64,000 nucleotides of DNA from Candidatus Magasanikiibacteriota bacterium (GTDB taxonomy: Bacteria; Patescibacteriota; Patescibacteriia; Magasanikbacterales; GWA2-37-8), in NCBI GenBank assembly GCA_041678665.1, contig JBAYNU010000004.1:12863-76862 (forward strand), in the 5' to 3' direction. A program made the translations under genes and the position numbers. Positions within the stretch are counted from its first letter, which is position 1. The number at the start of each line of letters is the position of its first letter. The notes below the pieces were generated by a model. The model was not told the origin of the DNA. It was given only the letters and a program-made list of their open reading frames with translations, and did not search any database. Below, in pieces: positions 50,653 through 56,625 of this stretch.

Positions 50653-50727
50653 AAATACTGGCACTAAGCCGGTATTTTTCTTGTAGCCCCAACGCAACGG
50701 TTGGCAAACTCTTTTAATGAAGTATTA

Positions 50728-51159
50728 TTATTTATTCGGATTTTTAACTTTGTATTTTTCAATAAACTTATAAATATACTTGACGACCTCATCTCTGCCG
50801 TCAGCCGGACTTCGTGCTACCCAAAGTGCGGTATTATACAAAACGGTGGTATCGGCTTTGAGCCAATATCCGTTAATTAACAAAAAGATTAGCAAGGCGG
50901 TAACCGCAATTCTTTTGTTACCATTTTGGAAAGGGTGGTTTTTAATTAAAAGATAAAACAAAAAAGCCGCTTTGCCATTGAGGCCTTTATATAAAAGTCG
51001 GTTATTAAATTTTTGGAAAGGGGAGACAATACAACTTTCTAGGATATTAGGATATCTCGTTTCAAATTCAGGAATCGGTTCATCCCAATCCATAGTGTTT
51101 TTGGCGAGACGATGGGCGACAAATTTAATCTGTTCTACGGTGATTGGTTTAATATTCAT
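50728..51159 (-). CDS. doc: Doc/Fic-family toxin
   Basis: Fic/Doc motif HPFQNGNKRIAVTA; about 140 aa; 4 nt downstream of an HTH gene. Confidence 0.7.
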   Translation of the reverse strand: MNIKPITVEQIKFVAHRLAKNTMDWDEPIPEFETRYPNILESCIVSPFQKFNNRLLYKGLNGKAAFLFYLLIKNHPFQNGNKRIAVTALLIFLLINGYWLKADTTVLYNTALWVARSPADGRDEVVKYIYKFIEKYKVKNPNK

Positions 51160-51163
51160 ATGT

Positions 51164-51424
51164 TTATTCCTTACCTAGCATTTTTAATAAATCACCATAC
51201 TCCACGATAACTTTTTTGACGCCGTATTCGATTTCATTTTTGAGCTTATCTGATAAATCAGAATAAACAATGCCCTTTAATTCTTTGCGGGGGATATAGT
51301 ATGTTTTGCCTACCTTTTTAGCTTTGATAGCGCCATTTTGGATTTTTTTAAAAACGGCAATTCTACTAACACCAAGAATATCGGCGAGTTGTTTAACGGT
51401 ATACGTTGTGTTATCTATTTTCAT
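51164..51424 (-). CDS. Excisionase/MerR-like HTH DNA-binding protein, putative antitoxin for Doc (start revised to internal ATG; the ORF-track N-terminus overlaps the promoter)
   Basis: HTH YTVKQLADILGVSRIAVFKKIQNG. Promoter TTGACA-17-TACAAT lies inside the longer ORF 51164..51469. Confidence 0.6.
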   Translation of the reverse strand: MKIDNTTYTVKQLADILGVSRIAVFKKIQNGAIKAKKVGKTYYIPRKELKGIVYSDLSDKLKNEIEYGVKKVIVEYGDLLKMLGKE

Positions 51425-51459
51425 ATTATTAAAGTTTGTTATGTTTATTCTACGCAGTA

Positions 51460-51488
51460 ATTGTACCATATGTTAACTATCATGTCAA
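51460..51488 (-). promoter_or_regulatory. Consensus sigma70 promoter (minus strand) TTGACA-17 nt-TACAAT for the HTH-doc operon, overlapped by GTTAAC-N13-GTTAAC palindromes
   Basis: Seen in the sequence. Confidence 0.65.
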
Positions 51489-51512
51489 TGGTTAACATAG
51501 ATTTGTATAACA

Positions 51513-51542
51513 AAAACCCCGCTATTTAAGCGGAGTTTTTTG
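51513..51542 (-). terminator. Rho-independent terminator (minus: AAAAAACUCCGCU-UAAAU-AGCGGGGUUUUU)
   Basis: Stem is better paired on the minus strand; ends the SIR2 operon/UTR. Confidence 0.65.
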
Positions 51543-51697
51543 GTCGTGGTAGAACACCTCGGTCTGGTACCCACCTGAGTGAGGCCGTTGATGGCTTTTT
51601 CGGAGGTCAAAGCCCGTGTTTCACAATCCCTCTCGGTCGGGGGTCGTTTGAGGCGTTTTTGATAATTATCTTGGGCTTATTATAACAAAAATTTACC
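51543..51697 (-). ncRNA. GC-rich (about 55%) structured 3'-UTR or small RNA candidate between the 300-aa gene and the terminator
   Basis: Local GC far above the about 40% background; contains CCCTCTCGGTC also found at 53922; no family recognised. Confidence 0.3.
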
Positions 51698-52600
51698 CTA
51701 TATAGCTATTTGTTTCTGGAATTCAGATTCAAGTTTTTTTAAATGATTGGGATCACTGAAGTATTCTTTAATTTTGACCACTTCTTTAGCCCCCATGGTG
51801 TTTGAGTGCCCTAAATAATCTACAAGATCTATTTCTGGATAAGAGAAGCGTGCATTAATGCCGCGCCCTTTGTGTACAACATGAAAGTGTTTCGAAATTT
51901 GTTTGCCTTTAAATACAGAATGATCGCCGCTATTTACTCTGAAATCAAATCCATTTATATCGCCAGCACGGCCACCCAGAATTGGGCCTTGCCATTCTAT
52001 TGCATCCTTGTATTTTTCTCTCAATTCTCTTTCCTCTCGTTCTTCTTCTGACTCGACAAATGGCGCAAATTTTTCCTCTGAATTATTAAGAATATTGAAA
52101 ATATCATCAGAAATTTTTTTGTCCCAAACCTGCTGCCTGCTTATTCTTTCTAATTCACTCCAATATGTATTCCAATCGCTTTTAAGTTTTGTAGTTCGTG
52201 CAACAGAGTTTGATAAATATTTTTTTATTTCTATCTGCTCTTTATCATAAATTGGATTTGTTCCCTTGATTATAAAAGGAAAGAGTGTAAATTGTTCATT
52301 TTCATTTCCGTTTATTTCAATTATAAGTCCTTGAGGATGTTCGGGATCTTTGGAATAAAGTTCAATACGCGATTTGATTCTAACCCTTTGTTTTATTTTT
52401 GATAAAAAACTTGGAATTATTTCTGCCGAAGGACCACTCATCGGTAAATAATTTCCATTAATACTCATCCAACCAATACCGAAGCCATGTCCTGCTGAGC
52501 TCAGCCATGATTTTGGTATTTCTGCGATAAGGTCAAATTTTAGACCAACTATTGCAAATGGTTTTGGCGTAATGAGTACTGCTTCTTTTTTGTTCTCCAT
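51698..52600 (-). CDS. Uncharacterised 300-aa protein co-oriented downstream of the SIR2-like gene
   Basis: ORF; beta-rich N-domain, acidic linker (EEEREERELRE), His-rich C-domain (RVNSGDHSVFKGKQISKHFHVVHKGRG). Confidence 0.55.
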   Translation of the reverse strand: MENKKEAVLITPKPFAIVGLKFDLIAEIPKSWLSSAGHGFGIGWMSINGNYLPMSGPSAEIIPSFLSKIKQRVRIKSRIELYSKDPEHPQGLIIEINGNENEQFTLFPFIIKGTNPIYDKEQIEIKKYLSNSVARTTKLKSDWNTYWSELERISRQQVWDKKISDDIFNILNNSEEKFAPFVESEEEREERELREKYKDAIEWQGPILGGRAGDINGFDFRVNSGDHSVFKGKQISKHFHVVHKGRGINARFSYPEIDLVDYLGHSNTMGAKEVVKIKEYFSDPNHLKKLESEFQKQIAI

Positions 52601-52711
52601 AAATATGTAATTCTACATGCCAATGAACCAAGATATTCTATATTGCATAAACATAGTTCATCTAACAAGAGTTATATTTTTTTATAGTACAATGTAATAA
52701 TATGTGTAGCA

Positions 52712-53731
52712 TTAAAATAGATGCTCGCTTCTTGATTCCATATTAAAGTCTGGATAAATTTTGAGTAGATTAGAAAACCCTGAAATATAAATTCGGCTAA
52801 TCCCGCCGAACTTATTCAGGCCGGTGTTGTTTATGACTGCCTTGCCTGTTGCACTATCTCCGCCTCCCACTATAATGATGCGTCGAGGGGGATTTTTAAT
52901 CAATTTTAATACCGAATCATTGAAGTGGTCTTCCTTGCCCTTCCAGCCAATAATGATTATGACATTGGCGTCATTTGTGACAAATTGCTGTAAGGCATGT
53001 ATATGCTCTATTGGGCAAGAGAACGATTTGCCCGTTATCGTTGGTACTACCAATGTCGACCCGTCGCCGGAATATTGGTAGCTTGAGTTAATTTTAATTT
53101 GGTTGCTTGCGTATCTCCCCCACATAATTGAGCCATGTGGGTAGATAAATTTTATAGGTCCATCAATAAAAGAACTGCTTTGAGAAAATTCAATACCCAA
53201 ACTTTCTGATAGCGCTTTTTGGGCTAAATAATCATAGTTAAAATTAACAATACAAAATTCTTTGGATATACACTTTAGTGCACGAAAGAATGTGTGGTAA
53301 TTGTTGCCTGAAATTTCTCGGTTTTCCCACGAAACCACTTTGAATAGTGAACCTAAATAATTAGTGAGGGCGACGATTTCGGTTGCAAATTTGCCTCCGT
53401 CGTTAGGATCATTTCGAACTTTATCAAGAGATTCCTCCAAACCAAGACCGTTTCCTTGCCATTTGCGGACAACACCAACCAAACCTTGAAGACGCGGTTG
53501 CGTGACCAGCAGTGACTTAAATGCTGGCCGGCTATCAAATAAATTATTTGATAGTGGTGGGCGTAAGGATGATTTTAGAAAGGATGGGTCTTCAGAATCA
53601 TCAATTAGGTCATATGATGCACCGGCACCGAATATAACTAGTGGTTTAATATTTACATTTGGAATGTCGCCAAGCATAGAAATATAACTAATAATATAGT
53701 AATATTGATTACTTTTGAATATTACCACCAC
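52712..53731 (-). CDS. SIR2-like (DHS-like NAD-binding, SIR2_2-type) domain protein (GTG start at 53731, or ATG at 53677)
   Basis: Motifs LVIFGAGASYD (GAGxS), VNFNYDYLAQ (NYD), IYPHGS (catalytic His region), IIIIGWKGKEDHF. Confidence 0.65.
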   Translation of the reverse strand: MVVIFKSNQYYYIISYISMLGDIPNVNIKPLVIFGAGASYDLIDDSEDPSFLKSSLRPPLSNNLFDSRPAFKSLLVTQPRLQGLVGVVRKWQGNGLGLEESLDKVRNDPNDGGKFATEIVALTNYLGSLFKVVSWENREISGNNYHTFFRALKCISKEFCIVNFNYDYLAQKALSESLGIEFSQSSSFIDGPIKFIYPHGSIMWGRYASNQIKINSSYQYSGDGSTLVVPTITGKSFSCPIEHIHALQQFVTNDANVIIIIGWKGKEDHFNDSVLKLIKNPPRRIIIVGGGDSATGKAVINNTGLNKFGGISRIYISGFSNLLKIYPDFNMESRSEHLF

Positions 53732-53888
53732 AATTATCGTTTGGCAAGAAAAGGTAGTTCAATTATTATATGAGATTTGTTGACTACTAAGCTTAAAAAG
53801 CATATAATTGAGAGTGTTAATTTGACTGTTTTATCAATTAAATAAAATTCGGATAATATTGATTTCACATTGTCAAATACTAAGACTA

Positions 53889-53925
53889 ACACAAAAGACG
53901 GCATTTAGCCGTCTTTTGTGTGTAC
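53889..53925. terminator. Perfect hairpin ACACAAAAGACGGC-ATTT-AGCCGTCTTTTGTGTGT
   Basis: Seen in the sequence. Confidence 0.6.
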
Positions 53926-53963
53926 ACCCCTCTCGGTCACCCGAGAACCCGTGCACAGCAGTG

Positions 53964-54035
53964 TAGCCCCAACGGGAATCGAACCCGTGTTGCCTCATTG
54001 AAAGCGAGGCGTCCTAGCCACTAGACGATGGGGCC
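53964..54035 (-). tRNA. tRNA-Glu (anticodon TTC)
   Basis: GGCCCCA acceptor, Glu-type D-arm TCGTCTAGTGGCTAGGAC, anticodon loop CTTTCAA, T-arm ACGGG-TTCGATT-CCCGT. Confidence 0.8.
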
Positions 54036-54281
54036 AAATTAACTTTTGTTAGGATTTAGAATATACATTTCTGCCATTAAGATGATTGAGACGATCCCGA
54101 TTCTGCTTCGAGCATGGGGCCAGATTGAATTTTGAATTATGAATAACGAATTTTGAGTATTGAACGACGGATAGGATTATATCATTTTCTGGGGATAAGT
54201 CAAGGCGAGGTTGACCGGAACAAATTTTTGTGTTAGTTTGAAGCTATAAAAAAGAATGTTCTTTACAAAAGGGGGGAAGTC

Positions 54282-55425: not shown

Positions 55426-55572
55426 AGTAATTATTATTGGTAATAAATTTAATGTTATTTTATCATATTTAATAAGTAAAGTAAATATCGTTTTTAAAGT
55501 TTGGCAATTTATGTTTTTTTTGCTAAGATATCTTTACTTCCCTTCTTATTTTTAAAAAGGTAAATTAATTTT

Positions 55573-56625
55573 ATGCGAGTAAATAGCAAGGATTATCGGA
55601 CAATTTGGATGGAGGGGGGTTCTGTTTTTTTGATTGAACAAAATTTGTTGCCGTTTGAGTTTAAAATTGTAGAATTGAAAACTTGCGTTGAAAGTTGCAA
55701 CGCTATCAAAACCATGCTCGTGCGGGGTGCGATTGCGATTGAAGCGGCGGCCGGGTATGCGATGGCGCAAGCATTTATGGAAGCGCCCAGAGACGATAAA
55801 GGAGAATATGTTGACCGAGCTAAGAAGAATATTGAATCCACCCGGCCTACGGCGCGAAATTTGTTTTATGCGGTGGATAGGGTTTATAACGCGGGTAGAA
55901 AATCTGATAATCCGGTTAGTGCAGTGGTAGCGGCGGTTGGTGAGATGGTGGAAGAAAGCGTGGTCGCCACGCGTCGAATTGGAGAAATTGGGGCGGAATT
56001 GATTAGAGACGGAATGAAAATAGAAACACATTGTAATGCTGGTTGGTTAGCTTGCGTTGATTGGGGCACGGCTCTATCGCCGATGTATATGGCTCACCGG
56101 GCTGGTAAAAAGATTTTTGTTTATGTTGATGAAACTCGTCCGCGCGGACAAGGGGCACGGCTCACTGCTTGGGAGTTAAATAATGAAGGCGTGCCGCATA
56201 AAATTATTCCTGATAACGCCGGCGCGTATTTAATGTCTAAAAACGAAGTGGATTTTATGATAGTGGGCGCGGATCGCATAGCGACCAATGGGGATACGGC
56301 CAACAAAATTGGTACTTTGGAAAAAGCGATTGTGGCTAAAAAATATGGCGTGCCATTTTATATTGCGGCGCCATTATCAACTTTCGATTTAAATTGTAAA
56401 ACCGGGACAGATATTAAAATCGAAGAACGCGGTGAAGACGAGGTATTATATCAAGTTGGTGTAGACGATCAGGGTGCGCTACGAAAAGTTTTGGTATGTT
56501 CACCGGGGTCACGTGCGATTAACCCCGGTTTTGATGTTACTCCGGCGGATCTGATTACTGGTATTATTACGGAAAAGGGGATTGTGAGGGCGAGTAGGGA
56601 AGAAATTAAAAAATTATTTGTTTAG
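55573..56625 (+). CDS. mtnA: eIF-2B/MtnA-family sugar-phosphate isomerase (methylthioribose-1-phosphate or ribose-1,5-bisphosphate isomerase)
   Basis: e2B-family fold; the class II aldolase gene immediately downstream suggests MtnA-MtnB. Confidence 0.7.
   Translation: MRVNSKDYRTIWMEGGSVFLIEQNLLPFEFKIVELKTCVESCNAIKTMLVRGAIAIEAAAGYAMAQAFMEAPRDDKGEYVDRAKKNIESTRPTARNLFYAVDRVYNAGRKSDNPVSAVVAAVGEMVEESVVATRRIGEIGAELIRDGMKIETHCNAGWLACVDWGTALSPMYMAHRAGKKIFVYVDETRPRGQGARLTAWELNNEGVPHKIIPDNAGAYLMSKNEVDFMIVGADRIATNGDTANKIGTLEKAIVAKKYGVPFYIAAPLSTFDLNCKTGTDIKIEERGEDEVLYQVGVDDQGALRKVLVCSPGSRAINPGFDVTPADLITGIITEKGIVRASREEIKKLFV

Follow-up and report, generated by a model that had tools for sequence, protein, structure and literature searches.

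The window analyzed here is a 64-kb stretch of a metagenome-assembled genome contig from Candidatus Magasanikbacteria (Patescibacteria, candidate phyla radiation, CPR). Next to a tRNA-Glu gene it carries two minus-strand open reading frames (ORFs), of which the upstream one encodes a SIR2-like protein and the downstream one a protein of 300 amino acids (aa), referred to below as the 300-aa protein; an HTH_17 gene and a Doc toxin gene follow. A first-pass annotation had located the two ORFs correctly, 111 bp apart at 52712-53731 and 51698-52600, and had proposed that they constitute a two-gene, NAD-depleting SIR2 defense system. Our analysis favors a different explanation, which we consider probable: the region is a tRNA-Glu-linked islet that holds three independent toxin or defense cassettes in one orientation, and the SIR2-like gene does not belong to a conserved two-gene system. 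The features of the region are listed here.

53963-54035, minus strand: tRNA-Glu(UUC) (ARAGORN; Rfam tRNA, 62.4 bits)
53962-53974, minus strand: attL-like copy of CGTTGGGGCTACA, a 13-nt direct repeat with which tRNA-Glu ends (repeat search)
53889-53956, minus strand: double hairpin 3′ of tRNA-Glu (RNA fold -45.1 kcal/mol, z = -7.19; inverted repeat)
52712-53677, minus strand: SIR2-like coding sequence, 321 aa, with ATG at 53677 and the frame open up to a GTG at 53731
52601-52711, minus strand: AT-rich 111-bp spacer between the SIR2-like and 300-aa genes
51698-52600, minus strand: ORF of the 300-aa protein
51512-51540, minus strand: intrinsic terminator ending the SIR2-like/300-aa unit (12-bp stem, U-tract; RNA fold)
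51164-51469, minus strand: HTH_17/excisionase-family protein, 101 aa (Pfam HTH_17, 2.6e-8; TIGR01764, 36.4 bits)
50728-51159, minus strand: Doc (Fic-fold) toxin, 143 aa (Pfam Fic, 2.6e-11, 44.6 bits; TIGR01550 DOC_P1, 50.7 bits)
50682-50694, minus strand: attR-like distal copy of CGTTGGGGCTACA, just past the asparaginase terminator

The islet starts directly downstream of the tRNA-Glu 3′ end. The two copies of the repeat agree at 13 of 13 nt, have the same orientation and lie 3.28 kb apart, so that a repeat of the tRNA 3′ end is present at the distal border, and exactly the SIR2-like, 300-aa, HTH_17 and Doc genes are found between them. A pattern search of the window returned two matches to this sequence, against 0.02 expected. 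GC content is 0.32-0.39 within the islet and rises to 0.41-0.51 in the flanks. From the repeat and the GC dip, together the classical signature of insertion at a tRNA 3′ end, we infer a low-GC islet of 3.3 kb spanning approximately 50695-53961, and this islet resembles a decayed or non-autonomous element that has integrated at tRNA-Glu. The surroundings described in the first-pass annotation are thereby confirmed: the pair does lie between tRNA-Glu and the Doc module, in a small, foreign-looking, low-GC islet of the kind expected for defense genes, and strong hairpins flank it, one after the tRNA (z = -7.2) and the other being the 12-bp-stem terminator after the 300-aa gene. An empty site, if one exists in sister populations, is predicted to have a junction in which GGTTCGATTCCCGTTGGGGCTACA passes directly into AGAAAAATACCGGC. 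The flanking asparaginase was used as a genome-scan query for such an empty site and gave no match. The best homologue of this asparaginase, at 43% identity, sits in a locus with neither synteny nor tRNA-Glu, and there were no close relatives for comparison. A phage or plasmid origin was also considered and rejected, as no relatives of the SIR2-like or the 300-aa protein were present in IMG/VR viral contigs, INPHARED or PLSDB.

Synteny of the SIR2-like and 300-aa genes

The association of the two genes was assessed by a synteny comparison that the first-pass annotation had itself named as a refuting test. A first set of nine loci encoding 300-aa homologues (45-66% identity) was searched for SIR2-like genes by tblastn, and 11 further loci of the family, from Ryanbacteria, Saccharibacteria, Staskawiczbacteria, Parcubacteria and others, were queried with 37 SIR2-family proteins. 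A SIR2-like gene was found in none of these 20 loci, and both genes occur together only in the window. Likewise, no homologue of the 300-aa protein was present in any of 86 SIR2-like loci. The nearest relatives are already unlinked; the closest SIR2-like homologue (69% identity) is followed 28 bp downstream by a GmrSD_N gene and has no 300-aa homologue beside it, and the closest 300-aa homologue (66% identity) stands alone beside divergent HTH genes. These data show no conserved two-gene system of SIR2-like and 300-aa genes, and the adjacency of the two is probably an accident of islet assembly. The two-gene SIR2 system of the first-pass annotation therefore does not survive the comparison, and a false lead, that of a new two-gene SIR2 architecture, is removed.

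Within the 111-bp spacer, a consensus scan detected no terminator-like or strong promoter-like site, and because no terminator is detectable, the two genes may plausibly be transcribed together in this genome. A two-gene NAD-depleting system, in which the 300-aa protein would act as the sensor or partner of the SIR2-like enzyme, would be compatible with this arrangement, with the common terminator after the second gene and with the residence of both genes in one tRNA-linked islet; reshuffling of modules does occur among defense systems. As a conserved system, however, it is refuted by the absence of any second locus with both genes, and the 300-aa protein has a probable toxin-type domain of its own as well as a different recurrent partner, a DNA methyltransferase (MTase; see below). 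We therefore regard a two-gene system as very unlikely.

The SIR2-like protein and its genomic company

The frame of the SIR2-like gene can be read from the GTG at 53731, giving the 339 aa of the first-pass annotation. However, the ATG at 53677 is most likely the true start, because the NCBI start lies there and all 14 of the closest homologues (P0017-P0030) begin there as well, opening with M(L/F/G/E)... at this position. The length of the protein is thus likely 321 and not 339 aa. The protein is 100% identical to NCBI WCX97_02060, which is annotated as hypothetical. Residue numbers below refer to the 321-aa form; 18 is added for the 339-aa ORF. All of the motifs named previously (GAGAS, NYD, PHGS and IIIIGW..D in this protein, and RVNSGDH and an acidic stretch in the 300-aa protein) are present in the translations. 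GAGAS occupies residues 17-21, and N147, D149 and H181 are the predicted catalytic residues; GAGAS, N147-Y-D149 and H181-G are invariant across 37 sequences.

Sequence and structure comparisons agree on the nature of this protein. PADLOC SIR2 models match it with a best E value of 5.8e-9. When the family profile was compared with the Protein Data Bank (PDB), it matched 8w9l, the SIR2 protein of Paenibacillus SIR2-HerA (PsSIR2), with an E value of 4.7e-8, and N147, D149 and H181 aligned on PsSIR2 N163, D165 and H212. These three PsSIR2 residues were named as putative catalytic residues, and mutation of catalytic residues in the SIR2 NADase pocket abolished protection against phage T7 (PMC11472057). 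The AlphaFold2 model of the protein has a pLDDT of 93.5 and a pTM of 0.93. Its top PDB matches in Foldseek are the SIR2 subunits of SIR2-HerA/Nezha (E ~1e-9; TM 0.5-0.59), followed by CobB, Sir2Af, SIRT1/3 and SPARSA; the Foldseek probability is 1.0 for SIR2 of SIR2-HerA, CobB, Sir2Af and SIRT1/3, which places the model within the SIR2 fold. By these profile and model comparisons, the upstream protein is a genuine SIR2-superfamily enzyme with an intact predicted NAD-binding and catalytic signature.

Among characterized systems, SIR2-HerA (Nezha; 8w9l, 8wld, 8suw, 8j4u) provides the closest solved relatives by both profile and fold. The GAGxS, N-x-D and H-G-S motifs align, and the proteins belong to a similar size class (321 versus 380-430 aa). 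However, the identity to these proteins is only 15-17%, no HerA/AAA partner is encoded in the islet or occurs in a set of 109 genes flanking homologues, and no HerA is found beside any of the 86 homologues. The SIR2_2-type catalytic domain is also shared with Thoeris ThsA, DSR1/DSR2 and the SIR2-APAZ protein of SPARSA, where it is an NAD+-depleting abortive-infection effector. Unlike Thoeris ThsA, the SIR2-like protein is single-domain and lacks SLOG, and there are no TIR or SLOG matches among the islet proteins; unlike DSR1/DSR2, which are of ~1000 aa with a large C-terminal sensor, it has 321 aa and no such sensor, and unlike SPARSA it has no APAZ/pAgo neighbor. It is, in essence, a SIR2 domain alone, without SLOG, TIR, APAZ, STAND or a large sensor region, and its weak Aga_SIR2 matches are confined to the SIR2 domain.

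Because the catalytic triad is conserved and the nearest characterized relatives act in this way, we propose that the enzyme would consume NAD+, either as a glycohydrolase or as an ADP-ribosyl transferase, as an effector of the abortive-infection type. By analogy with other bacterial SIR2 effectors it may be held off by autoinhibition or oligomerization, as has been described for PsSIR2 and ThsA (PMC11472057); neither a sensor domain nor a partner gene is conserved. A SIR2 protein of ~320 aa without a sensor or a fixed partner raises the question of how it is kept off and how it is triggered.

The neighbors of the family were inspected for such a partner. With at most three neighbors per side clustered, no neighbor family occurred in more than 3 of the 86 SIR2-like loci, and in Pfam and PADLOC searches of 109 immediate flanking genes no family occurred more than twice. 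In the close CPR clade the neighbors are GmrSD, HEPN_AbiU2, an SNF2 helicase, and RNase H with GIY-YIG, which looks like defense-island company without a fixed partner. At the individual loci of close homologues (L014:1282-2349, L011:7003-7656 and L013:2-1423), GmrSD_N follows after 28 bp, HEPN_AbiU2 follows after 42 bp and a 1030-aa SNF2 helicase precedes; some of these combinations could be two-gene units in their own right.

This company bears on two other views of the gene. In one, the SIR2-like gene would be the constant half of a modular system whose downstream half, a nuclease-type gene such as DUF4160, GmrSD, HEPN_AbiU2 or GIY-YIG, is exchangeable. In four of five close-clade contexts the next gene downstream, in the same orientation and after a gap of 28-265 bp, is indeed of a nuclease or toxin type. 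However, GmrSD and AbiU2 are known to act alone and their clustering has the look of a defense island, the family of the 84-aa GIY-YIG protein is small and ubiquitous, no recurring domain lies beside the SIR2-like gene in the wider family (80 metagenome loci), and the sample of close contexts is tiny. Exchangeable pairing is thus an improbable explanation. In the other view, the protein would not be a defense effector and would instead serve in housekeeping or regulation as an NAD-dependent enzyme, for instance a protein deacylase or an ADP-ribosyltransferase. The sirtuins CobB and SIRT1/3 are indeed among its structural matches, and many neighbors in the wide family are housekeeping genes. 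Yet the best sequence and structure matches are SIR2_2-type defense SIR2s and not sirtuin deacetylases, the distribution is patchy (a word search of 5.8 billion proteins gave 45 clusters), the gene lies in a low-GC, tRNA-linked islet beside toxins, and close homologues adjoin GmrSD, AbiU2 and SNF2 genes. We accordingly give a housekeeping role little credence and continue with the reading of the SIR2-like protein as a probable stand-alone, defense-type effector.

The 300-aa protein and its methyltransferase association

The downstream protein, 100% identical to NCBI WCX97_02055 and annotated there as hypothetical, had been described in the first-pass annotation as having no recognizable motif. 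Instead, an Ig-like domain, a linker and a probable DUF4160-type domain can be distinguished.

52256-52600, minus strand: Ig-like beta-sandwich, residues 1-~115
51989-52255, minus strand: long helix (119-155) and acidic helical linker, ESEEEREERELREKYKDAIEW, residues ~116-204 (AlphaFold2 secondary structure; alignment)
51698-51988, minus strand: probable DUF4160-type (DhiT toxin-type) domain, residues 205-300 and stop (family PF13711 matches; invariant columns)

In the AlphaFold2 model (pLDDT 77) the C-terminal domain is small and beta-rich. DUF4160 (PF13711) is matched by 10 of 15 members of the 300-aa family, with a best E value of 5.5e-5, and D226, H227, H238, H240 and H243 are invariant in 50 diverse full-length members. 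In addition, an exhaustive profile search recovered short relatives that have the canonical DUF4160 signature, Y-x-x-D-H-x-P-P-H-F-H-V, and are continuous with the motif of the 300-aa family. On these sequence grounds, the C-terminal domain is probably of the DUF4160 type, with an invariant D-H...H-x-H...H cluster.

DUF4160 is the DhiT toxin of DhiTA, a growth inhibitor of E. coli and Dickeya with an unknown mechanism (PMC8198452), and it has been proposed as the effector domain of Menshen NsnC-like proteins, where it is without a structural homologue (PMC12065111). Our searches, too, found no solved structural relative of the DUF4160-type domain and no nuclease fold match. The likeness to DhiTA and to the Menshen NsnC-like proteins resides in the C-terminal ~90 residues, which have the signature Y/F-S-x-D-H...(P)-H-F-H-V. 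DhiT-type proteins, however, stand alone at ~70-90 aa, whereas here the domain is fused behind the Ig-like domain and the helical linker; the 300-aa family is a new fused architecture for the orphan DUF4160/DhiT toxin domain. In contrast to DhiTA, no DUF2442 (DhiA) gene follows the 300-aa gene, the next gene being HTH_17, beyond the terminator; DUF2442 is also absent among the top 25 listed Pfam families of neighbors in the other loci of the family. The N-terminal module occurs with other C-terminal domains as well. A profile search identified a sister family (P0124, P0125, P0142, P0145, P0147 and P0152) that keeps the Ig-like and helical N-module, residues 1-211, and ends in an unrelated domain of ~150 aa that opens with a hydrophobic helix. 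Pfam searches gave no match for the exchanged C-terminal domains, nor for longer fusion proteins related to the 300-aa family. A constant N-module with exchanged C-terminal effectors is a pattern typical of toxin and defense proteins.

The genomic neighborhoods of the family revealed a recurrent association with DNA MTases. At 10 loci from ~6 independent lineages, an N6_N4-class DNA MTase gene lies upstream of, and divergent from, the 300-aa gene. It encodes either a fusion of LexA_DNA_bind, Peptidase_S24 and MTase located 19-66 bp away (L006/7/8, L097, L098/99) or a ParB_N-MTase beside the 300-aa gene (L002, L003, L009, L100). One further lineage (L101) has a C-5 methylase two genes away, downstream and on the same strand, and altogether a DNA MTase lies 0-3 genes from the 300-aa gene in 7 of the 12 independent informative lineages. 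Of 10 MTases checked, 8 have an intact DPPY or SPPY motif; no such motif was detected in the other two, L098 (a truncated sequence) and L100. The LexA-S24-MTase fusions with an intact SPPY, which are unusual proteins and all in other CPR genomes, are located at L006:305-1747, L097:1995-3434 (Ryanbacteria, MHOA01000012.1) and L099:4084-5982. Their composition suggests that a damage- or cleavage-responsive repressor-methylase controls the divergent 300-aa gene. In a neighbor-joining tree, MTase-linked members are scattered over the whole 300-aa family. The clade of the window (window, L001, L004 and L005) has no MTase in view, and a tblastn search of the window with the partner MTases returned nothing below E 0.1. 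Serine recombinases, an integrase, a rolling-circle Rep, NERD and AbiJ are also encoded near 300-aa-family genes; given the recombinases, integrase and Rep, the 300-aa family is therefore cargo of mobile elements. As to the smaller neighbors, a Zn-ribbon/HTH protein (L003:5318-6010 and L009:1475-2722, 49% identical to each other) is encoded directly upstream of the 300-aa homologue, and in L003 the two genes overlap by 10 nt, an arrangement resembling that of the controller proteins of restriction-modification (RM) operons. In L004 and L005 the 300-aa homologues are also preceded by small genes, which are unrelated to one another.

Given the toxicity of DhiT, the invariant residues and the MTase association, the 300-aa protein is most likely an independent toxic effector, in which the DUF4160 His/Asp cluster would bind metal and attack nucleic acid. 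The Ig-like and helical parts may serve in recognition or dimerization, and the clade of the window would have lost the MTase link. The HTH_17-Doc pair would be a third, separate toxin module.

The same neighborhoods raise a more specific alternative, in which members of the 300-aa family would supply the nuclease of RM-like modules, with DUF4160 as the catalytic domain, the Ig-like domain recognizing DNA, and the copy in the window an orphan whose MTase is elsewhere or lost. The likeness to type II RM, seen in the other genomes, consists in a 300-aa gene divergent to an N6/N4 MTase with LexA DNA-binding domain or ParB_N, or preceded by the HTH/Zn-ribbon gene. MTases of three architectures (LexA-S24-MTase, ParB-MTase and C-5 MTase) account for the seven linked lineages, the six N6_N4-type lineages are all divergently oriented, most of the catalytic motifs are intact across a wide spread of the tree, the overlap in L003 is as in controller-endonuclease operons, and the DUF4160-type domain has its invariant His/Asp cluster. 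Compared with type II RM, however, the islet has no MTase, no known endonuclease fold is recognized, and the link is incomplete: 5 of 12 lineages, including the whole clade of the window, have no MTase in view. ParB-MTase fusions are, moreover, typical orphan methylases of mobile elements, so that hitch-hiking alongside the recombinases and integrases is possible, and a solitary active endonuclease would kill its host. We consider the RM-like alternative rather unlikely. Even so, the recurrent MTase link makes a nuclease or restriction-type mechanism of the family directly testable, and if the family were a restriction-type nuclease, the DUF4160 His/Asp cluster would provide the first biochemical mechanism for the DhiT toxin family. 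A further extension, which we regard as doubtful, is that the Ig-like/coiled-coil/DUF4160 proteins are unrecognized, methylation-linked, restriction-type nucleases of CPR bacteria, and that the window's copy has been uncoupled and now stands in one unit with a sensor-less SIR2, perhaps as a new lineage-specific pairing.

Several observations weigh against the explanation we favor, an islet of three independent cassettes. The Pfam SIR2_2 (PF13289) score of the SIR2-like protein itself, 13.3 bits (E 0.093), falls short of the cut-off of 24.5; because of this, the SIR2 assignment rests on the PADLOC models, the family profile and the structure. The Pfam check suggested in the first-pass annotation thus came out negative for the protein itself, whereas its PADLOC counterpart was positive, and PF13289 matches 26 of 37 homologues (E <= 0.01; best 5e-7). 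Similarly, the window's own 300-aa copy has no PF13711 match, and its DUF4160 assignment comes via the family members; the miss is explained by an insertion of ~8 residues, SVFKGKQIS, between DH and HFH, which is found in the window copy and its closest homologue, P0002, only. The islet ORFs include no integrase, and the only recombination-related gene is that of the excisionase-family HTH protein, which could equally be the Doc antitoxin. The 13-nt repeat could have arisen by chance, at ~2% per window. For the close SIR2-like clade (>=40% identity), the inspection covered only about five contexts, and the housekeeping neighbors of many wide-family members mean that context does not establish a defense role family-wide. 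Finally, the shared strand, the 111-bp gap and the lack of an intervening terminator make it conceivable that the two genes are functionally coupled in this lineage, although we judge this highly improbable.

On the favored explanation, what is new here is a minimal stand-alone SIR2 of the apparent defense type and a fused DUF4160/DhiT architecture, both in a tRNA-linked islet of a CPR bacterium. They represent two uncharacterized families that remain in Patescibacteria, a group with a poorly known anti-phage repertoire.

The Doc module and local signals

The third cassette consists of the HTH_17 gene, which ends 4 bp before the Doc gene and is presumed to encode the Doc antitoxin or regulator, and the Doc gene itself, whose motif HPFQNGNKR, of the form HxFx(D/N)(A/G)NKR, is intact. 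A promoter-like site (scan score 11/12) is located at 51488-51460. The module resembles Phd-Doc in having a Doc protein with an intact Fic motif and a small DNA-binding protein encoded 4 bp before it, and differs in that the upstream protein is of the HTH_17/excisionase type and not Phd/YefM. It therefore qualifies as a Doc/Fic toxin-antitoxin module with a non-canonical antitoxin type. We also considered whether all four genes form one cassette and dropped the idea, since no Doc or HTH homologues lie near members of the SIR2-like or 300-aa family elsewhere (107 loci).

The hairpins of the islet look like ordinary intrinsic terminators. The double hairpin after tRNA-Glu comprises a 6+7-bp stem with a GUGA loop and then a 14-bp-stem intrinsic terminator with U-rich sequence, and the hairpin at 51512-51540 was flagged by the terminator scan on the plus strand too. 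An Rfam scan of 49-56 kb returned nothing beyond the tRNA. Between the stop codon of the 300-aa gene and its terminator, ~160 nt on the minus strand (51541-51697) have a GC content above that of their surroundings and moderate structure (z = -2.4), with no Rfam match. An 11-nt repeat, CCCTCTCGGTC, occurs at 51628 and 53928 and was set aside as compatible with chance for a 3.9-kb region. On the other side of the tRNA, a partial duplicate of the first 9 nt of tRNA-Glu plus its 5′ leader lies 86 bp upstream (54028-54048 versus 54114-54134; 21 nt, 86% identity), and ARAGORN calls no second tRNA at the duplicate. Further out, a 159-aa ORF at 55552-56031 on the minus strand runs entirely antisense to a 350-aa ORF at 55573-56625 on the plus strand and is probably a spurious shadow ORF.

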